DNA from: Candidatus Cloacimonadales bacterium
GTDB taxonomy: Bacteria > Cloacimonadota > Cloacimonadia > Cloacimonadales > JAFGVF01
DNA: 64,000 nucleotides
Direction of reading: 5' to 3'
Assembly (NCBI GenBank): GCA_963677495.2
Contig: CAXXOU010000004.1
Location: forward strand, 640,001 to 704,000
Shown here: positions 4,137 through 62,269 of the stretch, in pieces
Layout of the letters: each line of letters begins with the position of its first letter
Position numbering within the stretch: position 1 is the stretch's first letter
Position numbers and translations under genes: made by a program
The notes under the pieces: generated by a model
Database searches by the model: none
What the model saw: the letters and a program-made list of their open reading frames with translations, nothing else
What the model was told of the DNA's origin: nothing

Positions 4137-4505
4137 CAGTGCAATTTGCAATAACTTACCGCATTTCAGGGAGTTTATCGGCCTGATAAGGCTACGGACT
4201 TCCTAAAATGCACTCCGAAGTCGCATGTACCTGATTTCTTTCTCGCGTCACGCTATCGCTGCAACGCAAGTCCGAAAGAGACATACACAGTGCCTTTTTC
4301 AATAACTTAGCTATATTTATTGCCCTTTGTACTCGCTTTTACTGCACTATCTATCAACGCACTGTGTCTGCACTGCGCACGCACTGTGAAGGCACTGCTA
4401 ACCCACTGTTTCACTGGGTGCACAGTGCGTGCACAGTGGGAAAACAGTGGGAAGACTTCGATTTGGTAAAGAGCTTACTCAAAGTTTGCGATATCGCAAA
4501 AGAGA
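4137..4505 (+). repeat. Dispersed ~370-bp non-coding element, copy A (11-nt-phased CACTG/CAGTG array)
   Basis: Aligns by eye with 24684-25002 (+) and 42457-42826 (-). CACTG at 4360, 4371, 4382, 4393, 4404, 4412; CAGTG at 4423, 4434, 4445. Confidence 0.9.
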
Positions 4506-4681
4506 TACAACTGTAAGATGACCCAGGAAGAAGTGATTCACAACGAAGTGGGAATCGCTAATTCCGATTACTCTAAGTCAGGCTGTCAATGGCAGTGAGA
4601 AATGGTACACGATGGCAGTGAAAAGTGGTACAAAACTGCCAACCTTTAAAAATGACTACTTCAAGACAGTTTGGAGTAGGT

Positions 4682-6157
4682 ATGATTGGAGTAGAAGTGT
4701 ATCATTCAATAAAAACTATGCATAAGCAAGGGCATAGTCAGCGTAAGATCGCAGAGGAGTTGTCTCTATCAAAGACAACAGTAGGTAAATACATAAATAT
4801 GACACTTGATGAGTTCATGGAACTAATAAACAATAGCATTCGTGAAAGCAGTTTTGCCATATGTGAGCAATATGTCCGCGAAAGGCTTAGCAAATATCCA
4901 CGATTAAGAGCTAGTGTACTATATTTAGAAGTTAAGAAAAAGTTCCCTGAGATAAAAGCAAAAGACAGAGCTTTCCGAGATTTTGTTCGTAAGCTAAAGC
5001 AGACTTATCCTGTCGATAAATACCGTAATTATGCAGTAATCGAGACGGCTCCCGGTGTTCAGGTTCAAGTTGATCCAGGTGAGATGAAAGTAGTTTTGGG
5101 TAATAAACGTCAAAGAGTTTATTTTATAGTTTTTGTGCTTTCCCACTCGCGTCAAAGCTATGTCCATTGGAGCACAACACCATATAACACATCAAGGTTT
5201 ATTGAAGCTCATCGTGAAGCTTTTATCTATTTTGAAGGTATCCCTTCAGAGTGTGTTTACGACCAGACAAAGCTTGTAGTAATACAGGAACGCTATCGGG
5301 AAGTAATCTTAAATAATCAGTTCCATCAGTTTGCAGCAAAAACGGGCTTTCATCCTCATGTATGCGAAGGCTATGATCCACAAAGCAAGGGTAAAGTAGA
5401 GCGTAATGTCTCAGAAGTAAAGCATGGCTTTATGTATGGCAAAGAGTTCAAAGACCTGGCAGACCTGCGTTCACGCGGACTTGAGTGGCTTTTACACTTT
5501 AACGGCAGAACCCATGGCACAACCCGTAAAGTACCATCAGAAGTATGGCAAGAAGAGAGGTTAAAGCTAAAAGATATTCCAGAGTTTATCTTCACTTTAG
5601 AAGTTCGTAATGCAGATAAAACAGGCTTAATCTCGTATGAGGGTAATAAGTACTCTGTTCCATTAGAGTATCAGCGAAAACAGGTATATGTGCAAAAAGA
5701 AAAGAGCACTTTAGTGGTGATGGATATTTATACAAGAAAGGAAATCTGCCAACATGAGCTATGCACAGAAAAAGGCAAAATCATCAAAAACACTAATCAT
5801 TATCGGGATTTTACGGTAGTGCTACAAGAGCTTATTGAGCGAGTAAAGGATGAGATGAGTGAATATATCCAAGGAGAAGAACTAATCCAGAGGCTTGTTA
5901 ATGATAACCCTAAAATAGCAAGGGATCAGTTGAGAGCCTTAAGCAAGTTTAAGCGTAACTATGAAACAGATGTATGGGAGTCAGTGCTTCCTGAGGTAAT
6001 GACTCTTTCGCATGTAAAGGCAACAGCCATAGAGAAGCTTCTGAATGCAAAAGTAAGACAAATGAAGCTAAATGAATTATCAGAATCAGAACCACAACAA
6101 GACTCAGAGAGTTCATTAATAGAGCGCTCATTAGATGACTACATGAAGGTGTTATAA
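4682..6157 (+). CDS. istA: IS21-family DDE transposase IstA
   Basis: N-terminal HTH, ETAPGVQVQVD, YDQ.K, PQSKGKVER motifs. GGAG SD precedes ATG 4682. Confidence 0.95.
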   Translation: MIGVEVYHSIKTMHKQGHSQRKIAEELSLSKTTVGKYINMTLDEFMELINNSIRESSFAICEQYVRERLSKYPRLRASVLYLEVKKKFPEIKAKDRAFRDFVRKLKQTYPVDKYRNYAVIETAPGVQVQVDPGEMKVVLGNKRQRVYFIVFVLSHSRQSYVHWSTTPYNTSRFIEAHREAFIYFEGIPSECVYDQTKLVVIQERYREVILNNQFHQFAAKTGFHPHVCEGYDPQSKGKVERNVSEVKHGFMYGKEFKDLADLRSRGLEWLLHFNGRTHGTTRKVPSEVWQEERLKLKDIPEFIFTLEVRNADKTGLISYEGNKYSVPLEYQRKQVYVQKEKSTLVVMDIYTRKEICQHELCTEKGKIIKNTNHYRDFTVVLQELIERVKDEMSEYIQGEELIQRLVNDNPKIARDQLRALSKFKRNYETDVWESVLPEVMTLSHVKATAIEKLLNAKVRQMKLNELSESEPQQDSESSLIERSLDDYMKVL

Positions 6158-6158
6158 G

Positions 6159-6890
6159 ATGATAGAGATAACTAAAACATACATCAAAAGGGCTCGTTGT
6201 ACTCATATTTTGAATACTCTTGAAAGTGCAGTTTTAGAAGCAGAGAAACAGAATATGACTTATCTGGAGTTCGTACATTATCTATTTGAAAAAGAGAACT
6301 CAGGAAGGAATCAAACCAATATCAACAGAAGACTTAAACAGGCTCACATCCCGGTAATAAAGACCTTTGATGAGTTCGACTATGCTTATCAACAAGTAAT
6401 AACCAAAAGACAAGTAAAGGAGTGGAAGAACTTTGTCTGGCTGGAGCAGAGGAGGAATATAATTTTAATGGGACCTCCGGGAGTAGGTAAGACTCATGTT
6501 GCAACAGCACTCAGTTATGAAGCAATAAAGGCAGGCTATAAGGTGGTGTTTTATAATCTGAACAACCTTATCGAAGAACTTGTACTAGCTGAAGCAGATA
6601 ACAACATAGATAAATATCTAAGCAATATAGCCAAGAATGATCTGATAGTTATAGATGAGATGGGGTATCTTCCTCTCCAGACAAAGGCAGCTAATCTGTT
6701 CTTTAGACTCATCCATCTCTTATACGAATTTAGATCAGTAATCATAACATCGAATAGGTTGTTTAATGAATGGGGAGCTATTTTTAACGACAATGTGATA
6801 GCAACTGCTATTCTTGATAGATTACTCCATCACTCACAACCAATTACAATGCTCGGAGATAGCTTTAGACTAAGGAATTTTCAAAAATGA
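6159..6890 (+). CDS. istB: IS21-family AAA+ helper ATPase IstB
   Basis: Walker A GPPGVGKT, Walker B IVIDEMGY, AILDRLLHH motif. Confidence 0.96.
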   Translation: MIEITKTYIKRARCTHILNTLESAVLEAEKQNMTYLEFVHYLFEKENSGRNQTNINRRLKQAHIPVIKTFDEFDYAYQQVITKRQVKEWKNFVWLEQRRNIILMGPPGVGKTHVATALSYEAIKAGYKVVFYNLNNLIEELVLAEADNNIDKYLSNIAKNDLIVIDEMGYLPLQTKAANLFFRLIHLLYEFRSVIITSNRLFNEWGAIFNDNVIATAILDRLLHHSQPITMLGDSFRLRNFQK

Positions 6891-7083
6891 AGACTGTACC
6901 ATTTTTAAATGCCAAACTGTACCAATTTAAAATGCCATTGACAGTCAGGCTCGTTCTCGTCACAAGAAACTTCACTTATCAGCTATGTGTTCAAAGGTAC
7001 TTAGTTATAACGCAAATTCGAAAAAAGATTTGACACTTACAAGTACTAATTGATGTTTAGAAACACCCTATGTATAGAGGGTT

Positions 7084-18019: not shown

Positions 18020-19280
18020 GTTCCGTAAGGACAGAACAACTTGTGCCCTAGTTAGCTGATTATGGCTCCTGAAAATGCTTAATTAAACGTATGTTGTGGA
18101 TACACCTGAGGGCTTAAGATGTTAAGCCCCTACATGTACTACGACTCTCCAGATCGGAAATTGCTACAGCTATTTCGCTCCCATTCCTCTGCTATAATTG
18201 CTATACATTAGATATCTTAATCTTATCAAATTCGAGTCTAAAACCTGTTAAAGAATAACTACATTTCAATAGGGTTTCAATAGGTGTCTCCTATCTGAGT
18301 GTTAAAGATTGTAACAGAGCAGTGACAGTTTCATGATGTTGAGATTCCCTTAAAAGTTTTCTCATTTTATTCTGACGGATCTCTGCAAAAAGTCAGAAAT
18401 CCACCCCTACTTTGCTCCCGCCCCTCTCGGGGCTCTCTCGGGGGTAGGCGGGGTAGGTCCCCGAGTGGTCCCGGAGAGGAGCAGGGGTGGATACTTCACT
18501 TTCGGTTGACCTTGAGCAGACTTATTTCTGCCGATTTGCCCTTGAGCAATAAAAACAGAGCGGAAATATATCACTCATAATCAGCTTACTAAATTCTCAC
18601 TTCTCAAGTGGGTATTATGTGAGTGTTGAGTGGGGATTGAGTGAGTGATGAGTGAGAATTGCTCATGGGCGTAACTTGGGAATAAAGAGAATATGCCACA
18701 GATTTCTCAGATTATAAAGACTTGAAAACTATGATTTGGTATAGATCAATTTACACACTTTTTAGAATACTCCCCAGATTATCTCAGATATATGTATTTC
18801 GACATCGACGGTGCACGTCGAAACGTAGGACACGCTGCTAGCTTGTCCGCTTAGCAGAGCTAAGCCCCGCCACTGAAGTTAATTAGTATGATTTACTGAA
18901 GCTCTTTAGTAATTATCTTCAGGTTCAGTCTCGTAAAATACAGCTCTGTCGAGCTGTGGGCAAGCAGGCTGCATGCCCTACGTGACAGCCCTGAATGGGC
19001 TGAATATGAATAGCCCCGGGTTTTATGAACCCGGGGTCAAGTATCTCAAAAAACATTTAGAACCCTGAAGGGGTTCAACGATTCCTTGACAAAGAAAATG
19101 ATGCTTCTTAAATAAAGACATAACCAAAGGGTAGACCTACGGGTTTGCCCTTTTTCCTAATTTCCCTTTTGGCCTATCGGGGCGAAGCCTTTGGCGAAGA
19201 CCGAAGGGGTGCCATTGTAAACGGCGGGGTGGTAAAGTAACCCCTCACCTTAATCCTCTCCCCAAAGGGGCGAGGAGACA
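18020..19280. repeat. Intergenic mosaic of palindromic/REP-like modules and 11-nt-phased arrays
   Basis: No ORF of 60 aa or more. Contains GTAG/GTAA-footed hairpin pairs (18024-18134, 18824-18982), phased arrays (18400-18490, 18592-18660) and a TAGC three-hairpin module (18986-19078). Confidence 0.7.
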
Positions 19281-24683: not shown

Positions 24684-25002
24684 CAGTGGGATTTGCAATA
24701 ACTTACTGCATTTCAGGGAGTTTGCCGGTCTGATAAGGCAACGGACTTCCTAAAGTGCACTCCGAAGTTGCTATTCGCCCATCTCCCTTTGGTCGCTATA
24801 GCTCCAGCTTCCGATTTAGTTACACAGTGCCTTTTACAATAACTTAGCTATCTTTATTGCCCTTTTTACTCTCTTTTACTGCTCTATGCAGCAACGCGCT
24901 GTGTCTGCACTGTGCACCCACTGTGAAGGCACTGCCAACCCACTGTTTCACTGGGTGTACAGTGCGTGCACAGTGGGAAAACAGTGGGATGATTGCGTTT
25001 TG
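24684..25002 (+). repeat. Dispersed ~370-bp element, copy B (3'-truncated)
   Basis: High similarity to copy A (4137-4465), including the phased CACTG/CAGTG array. Confidence 0.9.
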
Positions 25003-33837: not shown

Positions 33838-33946
33838 ATTCTCGGGAATCACACGGGACTCTCCCGGGAATCTCTCGGGAATCTCTCGGGACTTTGCCCG
33901 AGAAAGTCTCTTTTTATTCCCGACACATTCCTGCATAAGTCACGGG
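33838..33946. repeat. 11-nt-phased CGGGA/CCCG array
   Basis: CGGGA at 33843, 33854, 33865, 33876, 33887. Inverted CCCG/CCTG/CACG at 33897, 33919, 33930, 33941. Confidence 0.85.
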
Positions 33947-34196
33947 GATTATGATAGGGAAATCAAACAACGATGTAATAGTCAACCGAAGGGATGGTTG
34001 TATAAGATTTTTTTGTTGCTTACAGCTTTTATTGTATGTCTATGTTATCTAGAAGAAAATGATAATTGGTAGTAAACTGTTCGAGAAGACAACTAACTCT
34101 TGGTATCTGTAGCATATGTAGCGATTTTACTTTACAAAAACAGTGTTAATATTTTCCTGCAATCAGAATAAATATAATGCTTTAAGGAGTCGTCTT

Positions 34197-35573
34197 ATGA
34201 AACAAGTCGGTTTTAAGTTTCCTACAGTTATAAGAGAAACAGCCCTCAATAGAGTTGAGGAGGAGTGGTATATCCCAATGCTTGCGAAGAAGCTTGGAAG
34301 AGAGATTACACCTACCAAAAGAAGTAATTTTGGTGAATACAATATGGCTGTGCATTACTTAACAACAGTAATGGAAGAAGCTAAAGCAGTTGAAAAAGTA
34401 GCTATTTATAATATCGATCACATGGCTCAGATTAGATTTACAGGTAAAGATGCATTAGCTCTTCTTAATCGTGTACTTCCTGCGAATGTTGAATCTATGA
34501 AGATCGGACAGTGTAAATACACACTGCTTCTCAATAAGAATGGTGGAACACAGGATGACCTGATAATTATGAGAGTCGCTGAAGCTGATTTCATTCTTGT
34601 TATCAATGCAGGTCATGATATAACAGACACTGTTGATGGTGTTGAGTATGTTGCTGATGTAGATAGAATCCTTGCTGAACTCAAAGATGGGGAAGAGGTT
34701 ATTGCTGAAGATATCTCTGACCAGCTTGTGAAGATCGACGTTCAAGGTCCATATTCCTATAAACTTCTTAAGAACCTATATGGTCAGGAAGTGCTTAGAA
34801 ACCGTAACAAGCCTGCTAAGAATATGGGATTCTTCTCATTCAATGAGTTTGATTATGAAGGACATCACTATTTCTTAAGTCGTACTGGTTACACAAACAG
34901 ATGGGGATGGGAACTCTATGTGCCTGTTGCAGTTGCTGAAGAACAGTTCAAACGTATTGTGACAGAAGCTCTTGAATTAGATGGTTTACTCGTAGGTCTC
35001 GGTGGTAGAGATGAGAATCGTCTTTCTGCTGGTAATGTTGGTTTACCTCTTATGGGTCAGGAATACACTCCTGCAACTACACCAACAAATGCACCTCTTT
35101 TTAACGCAGCTTTCGATCTGAACGGAGAGTTTGTAGGTAAAGAAGCAATTGTTAAAGATATCGAATCAGGTACAACCAAGAGAATGGTTCTTGTTATCAC
35201 AGAAGGTATCGCATCACATAGAGGTATCTACCTTGATGGTAAGAGATTAGGTGAGGTAACTTCAAGTATTAATTCACCTAATGTAAACCAGGAAAAGAGA
35301 GAATATATTGGTTCAACCAGAAAGACAGTTAACGGTGAAGCGGGAGTTGCTGCTATCGGTTTAGGCTGGCTTGATGAAAATCCTTATGATGTTGATGCAG
35401 AAGGTAAAGATGTAACAGTTGCTGATGATAAAGCTCTTAGAATCTATGTGGATTTCTATAAAGAAGATGCAGAAGGTAACCCGAAAGGTAAACCAATGAA
35501 AGGTTATATCTGTGCTGATGGAGTTACACCTGCAACAGCACCAAGACCACTTAAGAATATCGATAAATTATAA
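34197..35573 (+). CDS. gcvT: Aminomethyltransferase (glycine cleavage T protein family), divergent
   Basis: IDHMAQIRFTG.DA, KYTLLLN..GG..DD, SRTGYT...ELY, GLGGRD..RL.AG. AAGGAG SD precedes ATG 34197. Confidence 0.75.
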   Translation: MKQVGFKFPTVIRETALNRVEEEWYIPMLAKKLGREITPTKRSNFGEYNMAVHYLTTVMEEAKAVEKVAIYNIDHMAQIRFTGKDALALLNRVLPANVESMKIGQCKYTLLLNKNGGTQDDLIIMRVAEADFILVINAGHDITDTVDGVEYVADVDRILAELKDGEEVIAEDISDQLVKIDVQGPYSYKLLKNLYGQEVLRNRNKPAKNMGFFSFNEFDYEGHHYFLSRTGYTNRWGWELYVPVAVAEEQFKRIVTEALELDGLLVGLGGRDENRLSAGNVGLPLMGQEYTPATTPTNAPLFNAAFDLNGEFVGKEAIVKDIESGTTKRMVLVITEGIASHRGIYLDGKRLGEVTSSINSPNVNQEKREYIGSTRKTVNGEAGVAAIGLGWLDENPYDVDAEGKDVTVADDKALRIYVDFYKEDAEGNPKGKPMKGYICADGVTPATAPRPLKNIDKL

Positions 35574-35587
35574 ACGATCAAGATATG

Positions 35588-35615
35588 AAAAGCCTGCTGA
35601 AAAGCAGGCTTTTTT
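35588..35615 (+). terminator. Intrinsic terminator of gcvT
   Basis: AAAAGCCTGCT-GAAA-AGCAGGCTTTTTT. Confidence 0.85.
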
Positions 35616-35632
35616 ACATGTGTAGTGTTTTG

Positions 35633-36447
35633 GATATCAGTCCCTTGCGGACTGAACTTGAATAGCACTGGGCGCGGCTTAGTGTTTTAGATACCAGTAC
35701 CTTGTGGACTGAACCATAATAGCTATGGGCGAAAGCCCATAGAACCCAACCCAATATACCACAGCCCACATGGGCTGAATGTTATTCTAAATCATTCTGA
35801 TATGACAATCCAAACTCATCATACATCTTCTTCATCTCAGCAACAAAATCATATTTTTTATGATGCTCCTGCTGATTTTTAATATAGCTGATCAATCTAT
35901 CACGATCATTCCACGTAATTGTAAACACACCATACCCAATTTGCCAACCATAAAACATTGGGAATAGCTTTTCTTTCCTGATCATAAGATTGGTAGCATT
36001 CTTAATGATTTTTACTGTATCAGAAACAGTCTCCGACTGCTTTATTGAACACAAGATATGTACATGCTCCGGCATCATGTTTAATCGATAAACATATGAC
36101 CCCTTATTCTTAAGGATTCCAAATATATAGCCTAACAACTTATCTCGATGCGTAACATTTAATGCTTGTACACGATCCTTTGTACTAAAGACAATATGAT
36201 ATAATAATTGGGAATATGTAGCCATACAAACCTTCTGTATTGTTTTACTATAATATATGCATTGTTTAGTATATGACAAGTTGTTTGTTTTTTGAAATAT
36301 TCAGCCCATGAAGGGCTGATTTTCGTTGGGGTACAGGTCTATGGGCTTGCGCCCATAGCTATTATTGTTCAGTCCACAAGGGACTGGTTTATAAAACACT
36401 AAGTTGTGCCCATAGCTATTGTGGTCAGCACGCAAGGTGCTGATATC
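35633..36447 (-). mobile_element. HUH-transposase locus bounded by ~150-bp imperfect inverted hairpin arrays (REPtron-like)
   Basis: 35633-35780 is an imperfect reverse complement of 36299-36447. Both are built from stacked hairpins. Confidence 0.8.
35782..36225 (-). CDS. tnpA: Y1 HUH transposase (IS200/IS605 TnpA or REP-associated tyrosine transposase superfamily)
   Basis: YHIVFSTK.R, HUH motif EHVHIL, WQ.GYG, catalytic YIKNQ. No tnpB alongside. Confidence 0.92.
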   Translation of the reverse strand: MATYSQLLYHIVFSTKDRVQALNVTHRDKLLGYIFGILKNKGSYVYRLNMMPEHVHILCSIKQSETVSDTVKIIKNATNLMIRKEKLFPMFYGWQIGYGVFTITWNDRDRLISYIKNQQEHHKKYDFVAEMKKMYDEFGLSYQNDLE

Positions 36448-36486
36448 GGGAACAGAATCTGGTTTATTGAAGCATATTAACCTAGA

Positions 36487-37656
36487 TTACTTCAATTTAA
36501 TAAGGTAACGGTTCTTGGAACTTTCCGGACGTCCTCTTCTATCCTGTTTAAGTAGTAATCCTGTAGTAAAGATATTGTCCTTAATTGAGAAAACTTCTCT
36601 TGTTGAAAAATCAGTGTTCTCATTGAAATCCATTGAACTAACGAGATTTAGTTTATAGCCTTTATCCATGGAGAATAAGCTGACTTTGTTCCCTTCAAAT
36701 GTAGAAACCCAGTAGAGATTGTTTCCTGTTTTATGTGTAATAAAGATATGTGGTTTCTTCAATGGTACAGGATTGAAACTTTGTACCTTACCATCTCCGA
36801 GAACAGCAGTTGCCCGTTTCATCTCTTTACCAATAGTCTGATTACAGATTAAACCACCGGTAAGGAATGCTTGTGGCTGTATAGAATCTGGCAGTTTAAA
36901 AGAATATGTATGCAAGTACTCATACTCGCCGGAAACAAGTTTGAAAGTTGATATATTGCTGGTCAAACCACCGTAAGAGATTGCAAGCATATCGTTGTCT
37001 TGGACAAATGATATACCTAGGAACCTTTTCTTAATAATCTCAATCTTGGAGAGCTGTCTTATCTCTTTTTGGGAGAAAGTACCCGTAGGATTAAGTTCCG
37101 AATCAAAAAGATGGAGTAAACGTTTTCCTCTTCGTTTAGACATTGTTGCAGTGATTCCATGTTCACTCCAGTATCCACGGTCATAATCTATAGTTCTTGT
37201 GGCTCTACCACCTGCATATAGAGAAACAACTTTGTCCTTATTATTATTTAGTAAAACTCCCTTTGGACTTATGAAGATTGGTTTTGTTTCAACAGGCATC
37301 TCTTCGAAGTTTACTTTTTCGTTTGGAGTGTAGGTGCAGAGAATGTAGGAATCATCAAACTCCTCAAGAATAAGACTTAGCCATTTGTAATCCGGTGCTC
37401 TATCTAAAGCAGAGATTGATTTTAGACTACCGGATTTATATGTTCTTAGAACTTTGCTTGAGATTAGCTTCAGTTCTGTATTGAGTGTTTCTTCGATAAG
37501 AACTTGCTTTCCATCATTAGTTTGCAGTTTATGGATATAGATGAGACCGTTCCAATCTTGAATTGCAGTTGTCTTTTTCTCTAAAGTGATGGATTCTACC
37601 GCATTAATAGATATTGCTATTACTAGAATAAGAAAAATGACCGTAAGTTTTTTCAT
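36487..37656 (-). CDS. Hypothetical secreted protein, beta-rich
   Basis: GGAGG SD, signal peptide MKKLTVIFLILVIAISINA, 389-aa ORF. No family recognised. Confidence 0.7.
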   Translation of the reverse strand: MKKLTVIFLILVIAISINAVESITLEKKTTAIQDWNGLIYIHKLQTNDGKQVLIEETLNTELKLISSKVLRTYKSGSLKSISALDRAPDYKWLSLILEEFDDSYILCTYTPNEKVNFEEMPVETKPIFISPKGVLLNNNKDKVVSLYAGGRATRTIDYDRGYWSEHGITATMSKRRGKRLLHLFDSELNPTGTFSQKEIRQLSKIEIIKKRFLGISFVQDNDMLAISYGGLTSNISTFKLVSGEYEYLHTYSFKLPDSIQPQAFLTGGLICNQTIGKEMKRATAVLGDGKVQSFNPVPLKKPHIFITHKTGNNLYWVSTFEGNKVSLFSMDKGYKLNLVSSMDFNENTDFSTREVFSIKDNIFTTGLLLKQDRRGRPESSKNRYLIKLK

Positions 37657-37839
37657 TTGAGAACCTCCTTGATTCACGCAAAATCAGAATACATCTCAAG
37701 GAAACGGAAAAATTTGTACAGTCAAGTAAAAAGTATGCCATTAATATACCGGATTCTGTTAAGTAATGTTTAAATTAGAAGAAATGAATATTTTTGATTT
37801 GACAAATTCCCGGTTAACTTACAAATAGCACTAATTACT

Positions 37840-37887
37840 TAGCGGCGATTTTTCGCAGTTTGCTCCGCTATATAAATTTGCTAAAGT
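37840..37887 (+). ncRNA. SAM-II-type riboswitch aptamer upstream of metK
   Basis: P1 TAGCGG/CCGCTA, GATTT loop, TTGC, pseudoknot AGTTTG/TAAATT, 3' GCTAAAG. Context upstream of metK fits. Confidence 0.75.
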
Positions 37888-37905
37888 GTACGTGTAAAAA
37901 ATTTT

Positions 37906-37938
37906 GCCGACTTTAGCATGCTGAAGTCGGCTTTTTTT
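37906..37938 (+). terminator. Leader terminator (riboswitch expression platform)
   Basis: GCCGACTTTAGC-AT-GCTGAAGTCGGC followed by T7. The 5' arm is complementary to the aptamer 3' end. Confidence 0.85.
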
Positions 37939-37966
37939 ATTTAAAAATTAGAAAGGAGGTCCTGAT

Positions 37967-39136
37967 ATGAGTAAGGACATTATTAATAAACCGGGTAACT
38001 TCACATTTACTTCTGAGTCTGTGTCCGAAGGGCACCCTGATAAGGTATGTGATCAGATTTCTGATGCTATATTAGATGCATATTTAACTGAAGATCCCAA
38101 TGCACATGTTGCATGTGAGACTTTAGTAACTGAAAATCAGGTAGTGCTTGCTGGGGAGATTAGTTCTTGCTGTGAGCTTGATATTGAAACGATTGTTCGT
38201 AATGAGATAAAGAAAATTGGGTACACTGAAGAAGGAAAAGGTTTTAATCATGATTCTAAAATCCTAAACCTTCTACACTCTCAGGAGGGAGCTTTAAAAG
38301 ATAACGCAGATGTGCAGGGTGCCGGTGACCAGGGCCTTATGTTTGGATATGCTTGTCACCAGACAACAGAGCTTATGCCTGTTCCTATTCTTATGGCCCA
38401 TAAACTTGTACTTAAACTTGCTGAACTTAGAAAGAACGGAACACTCGGTTATCTGATGCCTGATGCAAAGTCACAAGTATCTTTCAGATATGAGAATAGA
38501 AGTCCAGTTCATCTTGAATCTTTGATTATCTCAACCCATCATCAACCAAAGAGTGAAGCTGAATTTGAAACAATGAAAGCTGAGATTATTAAGCTTGTTG
38601 TTAAACCAGTTATAGAAGATGTTCTAAAGAATTCACGTAAGGAGTTCACATATGATGAGAAGGAGTTCCAAATCAATCCACTTGGTATGTGGGAAGAGGG
38701 TGGACCTGCTTATGATACAGGTTTAACCGGTAGAAAGATTATTGTTGATACTTACGGTGGATGGGGAAGACACGGTGGTGGAGCTTTCTCAGGTAAAGAT
38801 GCTACTAAAGTTGATAGATCTGCTTGTTACATGGCACGCCATATTGCTAAAAGCATAGTTGCTTCCGGTATCGCAGAAGAGTGTGAAGTGCAGTTTGGCT
38901 TCATCATTGGCGACCCGCAACCTGTGTCTGTTATGGTTGATACATTCGGAACCGGTGATGTCTCTGAAGATGTTCTTGTTGAATATGTTAGAAATAACTT
39001 TGACCTTTCCGTGAAGGGTATAATAGATTACCTTGAATTAAAGAAACCTATCTTTAACCAAACAGCTGCTTATGGTCATTTCGGAAGAGATGATATTGAG
39101 CTTCCATGGGAAAGGGTTGTACCTATAAAGTTATAG
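37967..39136 (+). CDS. metK: S-adenosylmethionine synthetase
   Basis: FTSESVSEGHPDK, GAGDQG, GGGAFSGKD.TKVDRS. Confidence 0.98.
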   Translation: MSKDIINKPGNFTFTSESVSEGHPDKVCDQISDAILDAYLTEDPNAHVACETLVTENQVVLAGEISSCCELDIETIVRNEIKKIGYTEEGKGFNHDSKILNLLHSQEGALKDNADVQGAGDQGLMFGYACHQTTELMPVPILMAHKLVLKLAELRKNGTLGYLMPDAKSQVSFRYENRSPVHLESLIISTHHQPKSEAEFETMKAEIIKLVVKPVIEDVLKNSRKEFTYDEKEFQINPLGMWEEGGPAYDTGLTGRKIIVDTYGGWGRHGGGAFSGKDATKVDRSACYMARHIAKSIVASGIAEECEVQFGFIIGDPQPVSVMVDTFGTGDVSEDVLVEYVRNNFDLSVKGIIDYLELKKPIFNQTAAYGHFGRDDIELPWERVVPIKL

Positions 39137-42456: not shown

Positions 42457-42826
42457 ATTTCTTTTGCGATAATGCAAACTTTAACTAAACTCTTTACCAA
42501 AACGCAGTCATCCCACTGTTTTCCCACTGTGCACGCACTGTGCACCCAGTGAAACAGTGGGTTGACAGTGCCTTCACAGTGCGTGCGCAGTGCAAACACA
42601 GTGGGTTGGTGGATAGCTTAGTAAAAGAGAGTAAAAAGGGCAAAAAATATAGCTAAGTTATTGCAAAAGGCACTGTGTATATCTATCTCGGACTTGCTCC
42701 GCAACGAAGTGTAGGGCGAGAACGAAATCCTAGGATATGCGACTTCGAAGTGCTTTTTAGGAAGTCCGTTGCCTTATCAGGCCGACAAACTCCCTGAAAT
42801 GCCGTAAGTCATTGTTATTTGCACTG
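42457..42826 (-). repeat. Dispersed ~370-bp element, copy C (inverted)
   Basis: Its reverse complement aligns with 4137-4505. Confidence 0.9.
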
Positions 42827-51862: not shown

Positions 51863-51901
51863 TACCGGGTACGCAGGCATCTTGCCTGCACCTGACAATG
51901 T

Positions 51902-52358
51902 TGTAGTGCAAGTGTCCCCACTTGCACATAGCTCGATAGAGCTATAATCGGAAATTCAATCGTGTTAATCAAGTAGTATTGATGCATTTTATCTACTTTT
52001 AGCGATTTGCAGTCAGTGGCATTTGCCGACTCTGTCGTCACAGCAATTCAGGAGAATCGCAGTACATTGTACCCCGATCACCCCTGATCGGTCTAATTTG
52101 TAGTGCAAGTGTCCCCACTTGCACATAGCTCGATAGAGCTATAATCGGAAATTCAATCGTGTTAATCAAGTAGTATTGATGCATTTTATCTACTTTTAGC
52201 GATTTGCAGTCAGTGGCATTTGCCGACTCTGTCGTCACAGCAATTCAGGAGAATCGCAGTACATTGTACCCCGATCACCCCTGATCGGTCTAGTTTGTAG
52301 TGCTTGTGTCCCCACTTGCACATAGCTCGTTTAGAGCTATGGTCGGAAATTCAATCGT
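51902..52358. repeat. Tandem array of a 197-bp REP-containing unit (about 2.3 copies)
   Basis: Units start at 51902, 52099 and 52296. Each has GTAG-TGCAAGTG-TCCC-CACTTGCA; the two full units also carry GTAC-CCCGATCA-CCCC-TGATCGG. Confidence 0.92.
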
Positions 52359-52415
52359 ACTTTATCTAATCTAATGCTTAATATTTCTCGATAATCTCCT
52401 TCCTTCGTTATTCCT

Positions 52416-52502
52416 TATCCTAAAAGGATAATCCAATGTTAGCCATGGTGCTTTAGCCCATGGATAGGAATAGAAAAACAATCCGACCCTGAAGGGGTCG
52501 CC
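52416..52502 (+). repeat. TAGC three-hairpin module, near-identical to 55584-55670
   Basis: TATCCTAAAAGGATA...TAGC-CATGG...CCATGG...CGACCCTGAAGGGGTCG. Confidence 0.88.
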
Positions 52503-52505
52503 CAA

Positions 52506-52958
52506 TCACACTATCAAATGACTAAATTCCTCATATCGCGGAACCATGGGGATTAATCCTGTTTCCACAGCTTCTTTAATTGTTTTAACCGGTAAATCAT
52601 TATCAAAAACCTCCTGTGGGGTGATTGTTTGCAAATCAATACCCGGTAACGCTTTCTTTAGCATATACATCAGTTTCATATTCATCGATGGACCGTTTAA
52701 TCTGGTCCCATGTCCCATTAGCATGACATTCAAACGATCTGCGTAATTGCGTAAATCGCAAAGATAATCAGGACTCAGGTCCTTGTAATACTGTGAAAGG
52801 TGACGAGTTGTGTTTCCGATGATTGTATTCTGCTCGGAATGTTTTGGAACTACATAGTCGCGTGCATAGCCTTTACCGGTAAACTTATCAACATAATAGA
52901 CAAGTTCGTCCAATTTCCCTGAAAAGGCACCAAACGGTTTCATAAGATTAACTTTCAT
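52506..52958 (-). CDS. Hypothetical 150-aa protein (N-terminus reminiscent of DUF6266-type proteins)
   Basis: GGAG SD. Motif FGAFSGKLDELVYY...YARDYVVP..S.QN. The family resemblance is from memory and has not been searched. Confidence 0.7.
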   Translation of the reverse strand: MKVNLMKPFGAFSGKLDELVYYVDKFTGKGYARDYVVPKHSEQNTIIGNTTRHLSQYYKDLSPDYLCDLRNYADRLNVMLMGHGTRLNGPSMNMKLMYMLKKALPGIDLQTITPQEVFDNDLPVKTIKEAVETGLIPMVPRYEEFSHLIV

Positions 52959-55206: not shown

Positions 55207-55296
55207 ATGTATCCAAGTTGTTTATTGTAGATAAATAAAGCATCGTGTTATTCTCGCTTCCTTTCCGAGTATGACACAGGTTTTCGGAGTTGTATC

Positions 55297-55832
55297 TAAC
55301 CCTGGAAGGGTTACCTTTGAGTAGCCCCGAATGCAATTCGGGGTTCATAGACAGTAATCTAAATCAACCCCGAAGTGGGTTGAATATGCTTATAATAGGG
55401 TGTAATTATAGTATATTCGACCCCGTTGGGGTCGTGGATGTTCGGTAGGCTTGATACCATGCATTGCATACATGGCTACTCACATTTTATCCCTTTGGGA
55501 TAATGTCTTGCAATCCTAAAGCTTTATTAGGAAGTCCGTTCTCCCGTTGGTCGCGACAAACTCCCTAAAACGGGATTGTATTATATCCTAAAAGGATAAC
55601 CCAATGTTAGCCATGGTGCTTTAGCCCATGGATAGGAATAGAAAACCGATCCGACCCTGAAGGGGTCGACCATTCAAAATATTTCTTGTTACATTTTACA
55701 TTGGTATCTTCAAACATTTGTTGCTATCACCCAATATTGTAATGGGCAACCCTGTCAGGGTTGATTCTTAGAAGGGTATTTTCCCATAGGTTGAAACCTA
55801 TGGCTAACAATGGGTAACCCTTTTAGGGTTCA
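55297..55832. repeat. Two inverted pairs of TAGC three-hairpin modules (REPIN-like, gene-less)
   Basis: 55297-55386 pairs with inverted 55415-55502, and 55584-55670 with inverted 55746-55832. Same architecture as the tnpA flanks. Confidence 0.8.
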
Positions 55833-55835
55833 ATT

Positions 55836-55865
55836 AAAAAAGAGTGCCTTTTACGGCACTCTTTC
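55836..55865 (-). terminator. Intrinsic terminator of gcvPA-gcvPB
   Basis: AAAAAAGAGTGCC-TTTTAC-GGCACTCTTT. Confidence 0.8.
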
Positions 55866-59074: not shown

Positions 59075-59271
59075 TCATTATATCTGCTTAGTTGTACTAT
59101 CCCCACGTAACTCAGCAGAAATACAGTACCTTTAGAATGGTCCCTAGACCTTCTAAATGGTACTCTTGTTATATGTCAATGGCAGTGAGAAATGGTACAC
59201 GATGGCAGTGAAAAGTGGTACAAAACTGCCAACCTTTAAAAATGACTACTTCAAGACAGTTTGGAGTAGGT

Positions 59272-60747
59272 ATGATTGGAGTAGAAGTGTATCATTCAAT
59301 AAAAACTATGCATAAGCAAGGGCATAGTCAGCGTAAGATCGCAGAGGAGTTGTCTCTATCAAAGACAACAGTAGGTAAATACATAAATATGACACTTGAT
59401 GAGTTCATGGAACTAATAAACAATAGCATTCGTGAAAGCAGTTTTGCCATATGTGAGCAATATGTCCGCGAAAGGCTTAGCAAATATCCACGATTAAGAG
59501 CTAGTGTACTATATTTAGAAGTTAAGAAAAAGTTCCCTGAGATAAAAGCAAAAGACAGAGCTTTCCGAGATTTTGTTCGTAAGCTAAAGCAGACTTATCC
59601 TGTCGATAAATACCGTAATTATGCAGTAATCGAGACGGCTCCCGGTGTTCAGGTTCAAGTTGATCCAGGTGAGATGAAAGTAGTTTTGGGTAATAAACGT
59701 CAAAGAGTTTATTTTATAGTTTTTGTGCTTTCCCACTCGCGTCAAAGCTATGTCCATTGGAGCACAACACCATATAACACATCAAGGTTTATTGAAGCTC
59801 ATCGTGAAGCTTTTATCTATTTTGAAGGTATCCCTTCAGAGTGTGTTTACGACCAGACAAAGCTTGTAGTAATACAGGAACGCTATCGGGAAGTAATCTT
59901 AAATAATCAGTTCCATCAGTTTGCAGCAAAAACGGGCTTTCATCCTCATGTATGCGAAGGCTATGATCCACAAAGCAAGGGTAAAGTAGAGCGTAATGTC
60001 TCAGAAGTAAAGCATGGCTTTATGTATGGCAAAGAGTTCAAAGACCTGGCAGACCTGCGTTCACGCGGACTTGAGTGGCTTTTACACTTTAACGGCAGAA
60101 CCCATGGCACAACCCGTAAAGTACCATCAGAAGTATGGCAAGAAGAGAGGTTAAAGCTAAAAGATATTCCAGAGTTTATCTTCACTTTAGAAGTTCGTAA
60201 TGCAGATAAAACAGGCTTAATCTCGTATGAGGGTAATAAGTACTCTGTTCCATTAGAGTATCAGCGAAAACAGGTATATGTGCAAAAAGAAAAGAGCACT
60301 TTAGTGGTGATGGATATTTATACAAGAAAGGAAATCTGCCAACATGAGCTATGCACAGAAAAAGGCAAAATCATCAAAAACACTAATCATTATCGGGATT
60401 TTACGGTAGTGCTACAAGAGCTTATTGAGCGAGTAAAGGATGAGATGAGTGAATATATCCAAGGAGAAGAACTAATCCAGAGGCTTGTTAATGATAACCC
60501 TAAAATAGCAAGGGATCAGTTGAGAGCCTTAAGCAAGTTTAAGCGTAACTATGAAACAGATGTATGGGAGTCAGTGCTTCCTGAGGTAATGACTCTTTCG
60601 CATGTAAAGGCAACAGCCATAGAGAAGCTTCTGAATGCAAAAGTAAGACAAATGAAGCTAAATGAATTATCAGAATCAGAACCACAACAAGACTCAGAGA
60701 GTTCATTAATAGAGCGCTCATTAGATGACTACATGAAGGTGTTATAA
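59272..60747 (+). CDS. istA: IS21-family transposase IstA
   Basis: Protein identical to copy 1. Confidence 0.95.
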   Translation: MIGVEVYHSIKTMHKQGHSQRKIAEELSLSKTTVGKYINMTLDEFMELINNSIRESSFAICEQYVRERLSKYPRLRASVLYLEVKKKFPEIKAKDRAFRDFVRKLKQTYPVDKYRNYAVIETAPGVQVQVDPGEMKVVLGNKRQRVYFIVFVLSHSRQSYVHWSTTPYNTSRFIEAHREAFIYFEGIPSECVYDQTKLVVIQERYREVILNNQFHQFAAKTGFHPHVCEGYDPQSKGKVERNVSEVKHGFMYGKEFKDLADLRSRGLEWLLHFNGRTHGTTRKVPSEVWQEERLKLKDIPEFIFTLEVRNADKTGLISYEGNKYSVPLEYQRKQVYVQKEKSTLVVMDIYTRKEICQHELCTEKGKIIKNTNHYRDFTVVLQELIERVKDEMSEYIQGEELIQRLVNDNPKIARDQLRALSKFKRNYETDVWESVLPEVMTLSHVKATAIEKLLNAKVRQMKLNELSESEPQQDSESSLIERSLDDYMKVL

Positions 60748-60748
60748 G

Positions 60749-61480
60749 ATGATAGAGATAACTAAAACATACATCAAAAGGGCTCGTTGTACTCATATTT
60801 TGAATACTCTTGAAAGTGCAGTTTTAGAAGCAGAGAAACAGAATATGACTTATCTGGAGTTCGTACATTATCTATTTGAAAAAGAGAACTCAGGAAGGAA
60901 TCAAACCAATATCAACAGAAGACTTAAACAGGCTCACATCCCGGTAATAAAGACCTTTGATGAGTTCGACTATGCTTATCAACAAGTAATAACCAAAAGA
61001 CAAGTAAAGGAGTGGAAGAACTTTGTCTGGCTGGAGCAGAGGAGGAATATAATTTTAATGGGACCTCCGGGAGTAGGTAAGACTCATGTTGCAACAGCAC
61101 TCAGTTATGAAGCAATAAAGGCAGGATATAAGGTGGTGTTTTATAATCTGAACAACCTTATCGAAGAACTTGTACTAGCTGAAGCAGATAACAACATAGA
61201 TAAATATCTAAGCAATATAGCCAAGAATGATCTGATAGTTATAGATGAGATGGGGTATCTTCCTCTCCAGACAAAGGCAGCTAATCTGTTCTTTAGACTC
61301 ATCCATCTCTTATACGAATTTAGATCAGTAATCATAACATCGAATAGGTTGTTTAATGAATGGGGAGCTATTTTTAACGACAATGTGATAGCAACTGCTA
61401 TTCTTGATAGATTACTCCATCACTCACAACCAATTACAATGCTCGGAGACAGCTTTAGACTAAGGAATTTTCAAAAATGA
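60749..61480 (+). CDS. istB: IS21-family ATPase IstB
   Basis: Protein identical to copy 1. Confidence 0.96.
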   Translation: MIEITKTYIKRARCTHILNTLESAVLEAEKQNMTYLEFVHYLFEKENSGRNQTNINRRLKQAHIPVIKTFDEFDYAYQQVITKRQVKEWKNFVWLEQRRNIILMGPPGVGKTHVATALSYEAIKAGYKVVFYNLNNLIEELVLAEADNNIDKYLSNIAKNDLIVIDEMGYLPLQTKAANLFFRLIHLLYEFRSVIITSNRLFNEWGAIFNDNVIATAILDRLLHHSQPITMLGDSFRLRNFQK

Positions 61481-62269
61481 AGACTGTACCATTTTTAAAT
61501 GCCAAACTGTACCAATTTAAAATGCCATTGACATGTTATATTCCCCTCTCATAGGGGGTACCGTTTTTGGTAACGGTGGGGTGCATTCGAGTTGCACTAT
61601 TTGCAAGGTCTCGCACACTCAACCATTCCAAAGGTTCAGTTACGTAACTCAGCTTCACATGTACAACGACGTTGCACGTCGTTCCCACCTAATTCAGCAA
61701 CAGTACCTTTAGAATGGTCCCAAGACCTTCTAAATGGTACTCTTGTTATATTCCCCTCTCATAGGGGGTACCGTTTTTTGTAACGATGGGGTGTTTCTTC
61801 GAGTTGCACCATTTGCAAGGTCTCGCACACTCAACCATTCCAAAGGTTCAGTTACGTAACTCAGCTTCACATGTTGTACAACGACGTTGCACGTTAACTC
61901 AGCAACAGTACCTTTAGAATGGTCCCTAGACCTTCTAAATGGTACTCTTGTTATATTCCCCTCTCATAGGGGGTACCGTTTTTGGTAACGATGGGGTGTT
62001 TCTTCGAGTTGCACCATTTGCAAGGTCTCGCACACTCAACCATTCCAAAGGTTCAGTTACGTAACTCAGCTTCACATGTACAACGACGTTGCACGTCGTT
62101 CCCACCTAATTCAGCAACAGTACCTTTAGAATGGTCCCAAGACCTTCTAAATGGTACTCTTGTTATATTCCCCTCTCATAGGGGGTACCGTTTTTGGAAA
62201 CGGTGGGGTGTTCCCCTTCGAGTTGCACCATTTGCAAGGTCTCGCACACTCAACCATTCCAAAGGTACA

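Follow-up and report, generated by a model that had tools for sequence, protein, structure and literature searches.

A TnpA gene with a subclass 1.2 signature between inward-facing three-hairpin modules: a probable REPtron-like system on the IS200 side of the Y1 transposases

The window analysed here is a stretch of 64,000 nucleotides from a Candidatus Cloacimonadales bacterium (GenBank assembly GCA_963677495.2, contig CAXXOU010000004.1, positions 640,001 to 704,000). It contains a transposase gene, tnpA, enclosed by two arrays of hairpins, with gcvT as its neighbour on one side and an unannotated 396-aa open reading frame (ORF) on the other. The start was placed at the ATG at 36225, as set by the 147-aa length of the matching database protein. 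Short-read contigs (four runs, one sample) span 33851-38500 without a differing letter. The features of the locus are as follows.

35638..35684, plus strand: outer unit of the downstream arm; hairpin 1' (H1') 35638-35654, TAG 35663-35665, hairpin 2' (H2') 35666-35684, two G.T pairs
35695..35777, plus strand: inner complete module at the 3' end of tnpA, facing the gene; H1 35695-35711, TAG 35720-35722, H2 35723-35742, H3 35762-35777; 47.7 bits
35782..36225, minus strand: tnpA, Y1/HUH transposase with subclass 1.2 signature, 147 aa; H54-V-H56, W94-Q95, Y114-x3-Q118-x2-H121-H122
36250..36279, minus strand: Sigma70-like promoter match lying between the ATG and H3, by consensus only; 6 such sites were found where shuffles give 4.0
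36302..36386, minus strand: inner complete module at the 5' end of tnpA, facing the gene; H1 36370-36386, TAG 36359-36361, H2 36339-36358, H3 36302-36318; 67.8 bits under a covariance model of which it is a training row
36397..36442, minus strand: outer unit of the upstream arm; H1' 36426-36442, TAG 36416-36418, broken H2' 36397-36415

The module consists of a 17-nt hairpin 1, 8 nt, TAG, a hairpin 2 of about 20 nt, 19-24 nt, and a hairpin 3 of 16-17 nt; H2 opens with C, and the core of H3 is CCC/GGG. The arms on the two sides of tnpA are inverted, with 85% complementarity over 92 nt, which agrees with the inverted arrays described in an earlier note on this DNA. Each arm contains an outer unit, H1'-TAGC-H2', and in tandem with it an inner and complete one, H1-TAGC-H2-H3; the three-hairpin unit with linkers of about 8 and 20 nt that was proposed there is seen in the inner module of both arms. 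The outer H2 is paired on the left arm, with its two G.T pairs, and broken on the right arm. The H3 of the 3'-end module lies 4 nt from the tnpA stop codon, and the foot is ATAG in all four units.

The tnpA product matches Y1_Tnp (PF01797) at 74 bits, and the HuH motif, the single catalytic tyrosine, and the TnpA fold are all present. Among 98 rows (the product and 97 homologues), H54, H56, Q118, H121, and H122 are invariant, and W94, Q95, and Y114 are conserved in at least 90%. Its nearest named homologues are from Cloacimonadota. The predicted structure (pLDDT 88) has its best fold matches in the TnpA of ISDra2 (fold E-value about 1e-9, 30% identity) and of IS608; the E. coli RAYT is a poorer match, by sequence too. 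The product passes the IS200 equivalog narrowly (56.2 against a cut-off of 55) and fails the RAYT profile NF047646 (26.3 bits against a cut-off of 80), and it has YIKNQQEHH where the RAYT motif YxxxNP is absent. The protein was also placed in a Y1 tree, as the earlier note had suggested; in this tree of 145 rows, a quick version with long-branch warnings, class 2 (support 96) and subclass 1.1 (support 99) each split from the side of this tnpA.

Quentin, Siguier, Chandler, and Fichant (2018, PMC6006769) characterise subclass 1.2 by YxxxQxxHH, WQ, and a length of about 148 aa, and class 2, the RAYTs, by YxxxNP. The present protein resembles subclass 1.2 in its DH[IV]H-like HuH motif (here EHVH), WQ, YIKNQxEHH, length of about 148 aa, and C-terminal extension, and also in the few copies and the low identity between copies. 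Assigned by these published motifs, the enzyme appears from its sequence to belong to the IS200 side of the family with the subclass 1.2 signature, and not to the RAYTs. Of the earlier reading as an IS200/IS605- or REP-type Y1 TnpA, the IS200 side therefore holds, and the RAYT side is contradicted by motif, profile, fold, and tree.

Six pairs in which dS is unsaturated, all from other genera, give a dN/dS of about 0.02-0.12, silent sites being at or near saturation for tnpA pairs inside the host genus; the ratio points to purifying selection on the tnpA protein. As had been noted, tnpA stands without tnpB. TnpB (PF07282) was not found in the genome by a search that was positive in 8 of 14 control genomes, nor in any of 24 long ORFs that follow tnpA in the same orientation at 79 GTDB loci (Planctomycetota, Verrucomicrobiota, Bacteroidota, Acidobacteriota, and others).

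A covariance model of the module was built from 63 modules, and it scored 148 of the best 150 of 357 candidates. Together with nhmmer, it gives 173 modules in 87 clusters, and 172 of these modules lie outside ORFs of at least 120 aa. The clusters are single modules (40), tail-to-tail doublets as around tnpA, head-to-head doublets, and tandem arrays in which the H3 of one unit doubles as the H1 of the next; likeness between H1 and H3 is 0.58 inside one module against 0.48 between modules. Genes flanking the modules have no preferred orientation (30 ++, 22 +-, 22 -+, 13 --), and the 40 solo modules divide 25 to 15 between the replication strands, a bias that was given no weight because the skew is noisy.

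Five tnpA paralogues, 46-66% identical, are present in the genome, each with its own 5' and 3' module types, and modules outnumber the genes by about 35 to 1. In the tree, the five cluster with copies of the same genus (support 100). Each tnpA is bracketed by two inward three-hairpin modules on opposite strands. Among the gene-less tail-to-tail doublets, 23 of 30 pair a 5' type with a 3' type of one lineage, against a mean of 8.2 and a maximum of 18 in 10,000 shuffles; the 23 represent four lineages only and are mostly copies of one family. Judged by these sequence matches, the gene-less doublets are mostly the two ends of a lineage without the gene. No known end is matched by 41 of 163 dispersed modules.

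Three further loci may be mentioned. A 151-aa ORF without a Pfam match lies between inward modules beside the paralogue L003 (L003:260-715, G000:C1), with the same spacing as the neighbouring tnpA, and is possibly cargo. L002 (G000:C4:22181-22528) encodes a divergent YxxxQxxHH TnpA, 24-30% identical to the others, and the unit at its flanks, in direct orientation, also has three hairpins but is a different one, which the module model does not match. The right end of a true IS200-type element (L001:1940-2041, L126:1956-2057) scores weakly, at 19 bits, with the module model and has hairpins resembling H1 and H3; shared ancestry with the module ends is possible.

The foot of the module is TAGC in 162 of the 173 modules of the host genome. 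The C of TAGC already pairs, as the first base of hairpin 2, and the unpaired foot is ATAG in 121, GTAG in 22, and TTAG in 17 modules. Across phyla, the conservation of the foot is 0.79 for T, 0.91 for A, 0.95 for G, 0.97 for C, and 0.95 for the next C, so that the best conserved letters are A-G-C-C; the variants include TAA, AAG, CAG, CTG, and TTG, of which the shifted CTG/TTG foot is carried by one protein clade (L057, L063, L091; support 100). The tnpA of L301 (G027:C2:1437000-1439000) is surrounded by a variant of the unit with a TAA foot, which is repeated there in long direct tandem arrays. From these alignments, the foot is best described as (A/G/T)TAG with a paired C, which is GTAG-like and varies across phyla. 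The earlier description of the foot as invariant TAGC holds at all six other sites in the window and fails genome-wide, and the label 'non-GTAG' was overstated, since the foot is NTAG with a paired C and literal GTAG does occur, although most feet are ATAG.

The foot was compared with chance controls. A three-hairpin descriptor found 59 matches in the genome with TAGC and 0-5 with 12 of 13 control 4-mers. The remaining control word, AGTC, gave 18 matches, which are 16 members of another repeat family and two out-of-register modules. The same descriptor found one and zero matches in two locally shuffled genomes. In a search for the geometry that was blind to sequence, the foot was TAGC at 33 of 48 sites.

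Besides the tnpA locus, the window contains the following modules.

18980..19082, plus strand: solo module; best 0.66 to ends of the sister species and 0.71 to the 3' end of L004; no close cognate tnpA end
52409..52506, plus strand: solo module of the 3'-end type of L007; a 93% copy of the module at 55577
55291..55509: tail-to-tail doublet without a gene (55291-55388 plus strand, 55412-55509 minus strand), its modules being of the 5'-end and 3'-end types of element L123 (sister species G001)
55577..55837: gene-less tail-to-tail doublet (55577-55674 plus strand, 55741-55837 minus strand) with the 3'- and 5'-end types of paralogue L007

The module with TAGC is thus found at six of the six other sites in the window for which the same architecture had been claimed. 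The further claim that this TnpA maintains its own family at these sites fails: they match L123, L007, or no close cognate. The doublet at 55291..55509 matches the L123 ends at 0.90 and 0.80, and a tnpA of the L123 type was not found in the host genome; the doublet at 55577..55837 matches the L007 ends at 0.83 and 0.74 over the full module. The module type of the gene at 35782-36225 itself has about 14 copies elsewhere in the genome.

Other repeats occur in the same window. At 51901-52358 are tandem 197-nt units with a GTAG-footed hairpin, of a family that also flanks the class-2 RAYT L014 (G000:C4:1452337). At 4284-4465, 24821-25002, and 42457-42707 is a dispersed repeat family with words of 11-nt period and flipped arms, and at 61534-62269 are tandem units of 205-214 nt, with similar sequence beside the class-2 Y1 gene L009. 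Two apparently identical copies of a 2.4-kb element (4576-6951 and 59173-61534), with 50-nt terminal inverted repeats, look like a classical IS.

When the covariance model was run on this genome and its relatives, as the earlier note had proposed, pairing of gene and module was found to recur in many phyla. Among the matches listed, at least six modules are present in 19 of 24 relatives with a 1.2-type tnpA against 1 of 16 without (40 relatives), and outside the host's own family in 8 of 13 with the gene against 1 of 16 without; related genomes are not independent samples in these counts, by which the expected co-occurrence of module and TnpA is borne out. Five of the 24 relatives with the gene have at most one module match among those listed. 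G034 (99% complete) has 16 module matches and no subclass-1.2 gene that the search found, so either its repeats are orphaned or the gene was missed. Of the 79 GTDB loci, 56 have a module match at E<=1e-6, some of these being training rows. Dispersed module matches number 8 to 107 in five genomes of three other phyla.

A held-out set of 80 metagenome loci, 57 of them with enough flank, was also analysed. Modules face inward on both sides in 35 of the 57 and on one side only in 10; the nearest modules are on the same strand in 7, there are none in 5, and both face outward in 0. In the held-out alignment, which was fitted to the covariance model, 88% of cells are paired, against 37-51% in slid controls, and compensatory change occurs in 21 of 22 pairs. 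Covariation counted on the training alignment is circular and carries no weight here. It appears from the held-out set that the stems vary yet stay paired, as had been suggested.

Overall, what is retained of the REPtron-like system first suspected is a tnpB-less Y1 TnpA paired with long, covarying modules; its enzyme class, the non-GTAG label, and the family at the sites first listed are not. With a probability of roughly three in four, we consider the locus to be an autonomous member of a REPtron-like system founded on subclass 1.2 of the IS200-side Y1 transposases.

The evidence on mobility comes from the relatives as well as from the host genome. gcvT is present in four of five relatives, with unalignable DNA downstream, and no tnpA follows it in the stretches from four relatives (the contig of G002 ends about 320 nt on). 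In sister species, the orthologous elements L005/L096 and L004/L098 have kept their end types and share no flanks; each tnpA lineage retains its 5' and 3' module types while shifting its genomic position. In G006, whose eight loci include one 97% and one 91% identical pair, two cassettes 0.9 Mb apart are 97% identical over 903 nt; one of their boundaries lies 8 nt outside hairpin 1, and the others lie about 157 and about 45 nt outside. Between close copies in the host genome, homology ends mostly 24-28 nt before the T of TAG, with ragged edges from -21 to -50. In most cases, then, the sequence that copies have in common does not extend past the outer foot of hairpin 1, an edge that selection on the hairpin could alternatively produce.

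An old, ordinary IS200-like IS with unusually long ends, moving by one-strand peel-and-paste and leaving the dispersed modules as MITE-like deletion derivatives, is an alternative reading. The five copies are at unrelated sites with none at the gcvT site of the relatives, G006 has its nearly identical cassette pair, 5' and 3' types differ as left and right ends do, and the enzyme resembles subclass 1.1 (IS608, ISDra2, IS200) in its best folds, YxxxQ, and hairpin ends as well as in the narrow equivalog pass. However, the ends are inverted on opposite strands here; IS200/IS605 elements, in contrast, transpose in a strand-specific way, and their guides lie 5' of each palindrome (PMC8266576). Unlike in subclass 1.1, the target motif is not conserved: in 224 modules taken from other genomes, the positions outside hairpin 1 (-34 to -23) carry no more than 0.07 bits, nor did logos and mutual information over 224 and 78 modules reveal foot-to-flank covariation of the complementary kind. 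There are also no near-identical copies in the host genome, where the paralogues are 46-66% identical against 99.4% for subclass 1.1; the excess of non-autonomous modules, about 35 to 1, is large; and a downstream gene common to L018/L037 and to L024/L036, among the pairs from relatives, suggests long residence. This explanation is considered unlikely.

Several searches for direct traces of movement gave no candidate. Among the matches listed for one locus in 61 Algoriphagus genomes there was no clean empty site, and no excision joint of the element was found in the four runs of one sample, where the single listed joint links two repeat copies. Carriage by phages was considered and rejected on three weak, partial matches among viral contigs, and near-identical modules in G027 and G007, considered as element ends, sit inside longer repeated units and so do not mark the ends of this element. 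L248 (G205:C50) has an exact tandem duplication of the tnpA cassette with a period of 1363 nt, possibly an assembly artefact.

It could also be supposed that the modules are spread by another enzyme, such as a class-2 RAYT of this genome, or by recombination in composite nests, with the 1.2 TnpA as a passenger or mere seeder. Many modules are indeed embedded in such nests beside other repeat families, with flanks in common over hundreds of bases, the GTAG repeat found around RAYT L014 has left a remnant as the 36-nt spacer of head-to-head modules, a G007 doublet is carried within the termini of another element, and orphan module families exist. However, the module model has no match in the seven class-2 loci of the host genome and, at nine IS200-type loci, scores no higher than 19 bits up to 300 nt from the gene, the module types follow the 1.2 protein lineages, and the association of gene and module holds across phyla, so that such a role for another enzyme is very improbable.

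One half of the module appears to be known already under another name. Weinberg et al. (2010, PMC2864571) listed Acido-Lenti-1 (RF01687) as a probable sRNA of Acidobacteria and Lentisphaerae, and its consensus, like the seed rows shown in their supplement, reads H1-linker-TAG-H2 once reverse-complemented. RF01687 matches paralogue loci on the antisense strand, with one match in this genome, at 37.1 bits (gathering score 37) beside the paralogue L003, and none at the locus 35782-36225. In 20 homologous loci chosen for clear modules, all 20 RF01687 matches are antisense inside a module beside a 1.2 tnpA; 14 of them are above 37, in 7 of the 20 loci. The Rfam model differs from the module in lacking hairpin 3 and lying on the other strand, and the available text of PMC2864571 makes no link to a transposase. 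Acido-Lenti-1 is best read, from these alignments, as the antisense half of the module repeat. In its main text, a 2026 preprint on noncoding space (10.64898/2026.10.21.760802) names Acido-Lenti-1 once, and IS200, TnpA, and RAYT are absent there. That the module is instead a structured RNA or a transcription or stability element, with a regulatory or secondary link to tnpA, would suit its covarying stems and the terminator-like scores of H2 and H3 as well as the Rfam entry, but is hardly probable given the 20 antisense matches at these chosen loci, modules on both sides of the gene and on opposite strands, flanking genes without preferred orientation, and an excess of G.T over A.C, which is 34 to 13 and 91 to 56 when read on the TAG strand and favours the strand opposite to that of Rfam.

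Compared with published systems, the REPtron-like reading has clear parallels. In REPtrons and REPIN-RAYT systems (E. coli TnpA-REP, PDB code: 4ER8; PMC3479197, PMC8266576), tnpA likewise lies between inverted palindromic repeats, and intergenic doublets and tandem clusters, a TAG-ending foot 5' of the hairpin, and one repeat family per enzyme lineage are common to both. The module enzyme differs from RAYTs in lacking YxxxNP and in its low score with their profile (26, with the cut-off at 80). Its repeat spans 85 nt and forms three hairpins instead of one over 20-40 nt, and the first base of the foot is free, in contrast to the strict GT[AG]G. For a housekeeping-like vertical inheritance without self-copying, as in RAYTs, the signs are mixed: the position of tnpA is not conserved between sister species, it is non-syntenic in the host genus, and a 97% pair exists in G006; neighbours are shared in two other pairs, and the protein is under purifying selection.

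For subclass 1.2, the available text of PMC6006769 lists no REPs; its automatic repeat search used GT[AG]G feet. Here, a conserved module of three hairpins and 85 nt borders the gene and also occurs dispersed, and most feet fall outside GT[AG]G. The modules contradict the published no-REP description of the subclass, not the assignment. Bertels et al. (2017, PMC5581495) described an IS200 Group 3 that lacks duplicates, is absent from plasmids, and has many 16-mers at its flanks; the likeness lies in its IS200-side proteins and in repeats that are given as 16-mers without further description in the text available, and we infer that this group corresponds to subclass 1.2. Di Nocera et al. (2013, PMC3733652) catalogued GTAG repeats in the PVC group, and some GTAG-footed H2 hairpins may already be in that catalogue. 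In the literature searched, with subscription journals and ISfinder outside the scope, no paper was found that links subclass 1.2 or Acido-Lenti-1 to such repeats.

A proposed mechanism for the system can be potentially described as follows. TnpA would bind single-stranded DNA on the strand with TAG 5' of hairpin 2, the one on which G.T pairs outnumber A.C mismatches, and would read the TAG foot as RAYTs read GTAG, a foot which these need for binding and cleavage, with the inverted copy unbound (PMC3479197). It may then cut near the outer foot of hairpin 1 via Tyr114. Rejoining of the ends would often copy mini-elements or single modules, and rarely whole cassettes, into new intergenic sites. 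Against a guide-target rule stands the lack of a conserved motif and of complementary covariation outside hairpin 1, so that the sequences lend guide-directed cutting no support. The weakest step is by analogy: in RAYTs, the CT cut is chosen by A3-G4 of GTAG (PMC8266576), and the conserved A-G might favour a CT cut here. A benefit to the host is not needed to explain the data.

RAYTs are monomers, and IS200/IS605 enzymes are dimers (PMC3479197). A bolder scheme, which we put forward tentatively and hold to be rather doubtful, is that subclass 1.2 forms a second, independent REP-type partnership on the IS200 side, in which a probably dimeric enzyme moves cassettes and mini-elements with ends on opposite strands, and the cut is set by structure, at the foot of hairpin 1, and not by target sequence. 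If this opposite-strand reading is true, transposition would here follow a route other than peel-and-paste, and the spread of REPINs would gain a tractable model, with several enzyme-repeat pairs of separate specificity coexisting in one genome.

The contribution of this genome lies in its paralogue-specific 5' and 3' end types and in the gene-less doublets of matched ends. The published 'no REP' entry is corrected for a subclass that is present in many phyla, and an orphan Rfam 'sRNA' would be reassigned as half of a DNA repeat. How REP and REPIN repeats spread is an open question, since the RAYT monomers cut but, in the available text of PMC3479197, have no shown route to coordinated excision. 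An IS200-like enzyme whose defined ends are specific to its lineage, and for which there are natural mini-elements and signs that cassettes were copied recently, makes this spread directly testable, and within this one genome the five paralogues, which differ in their end types, are a ready panel for cross-specificity.
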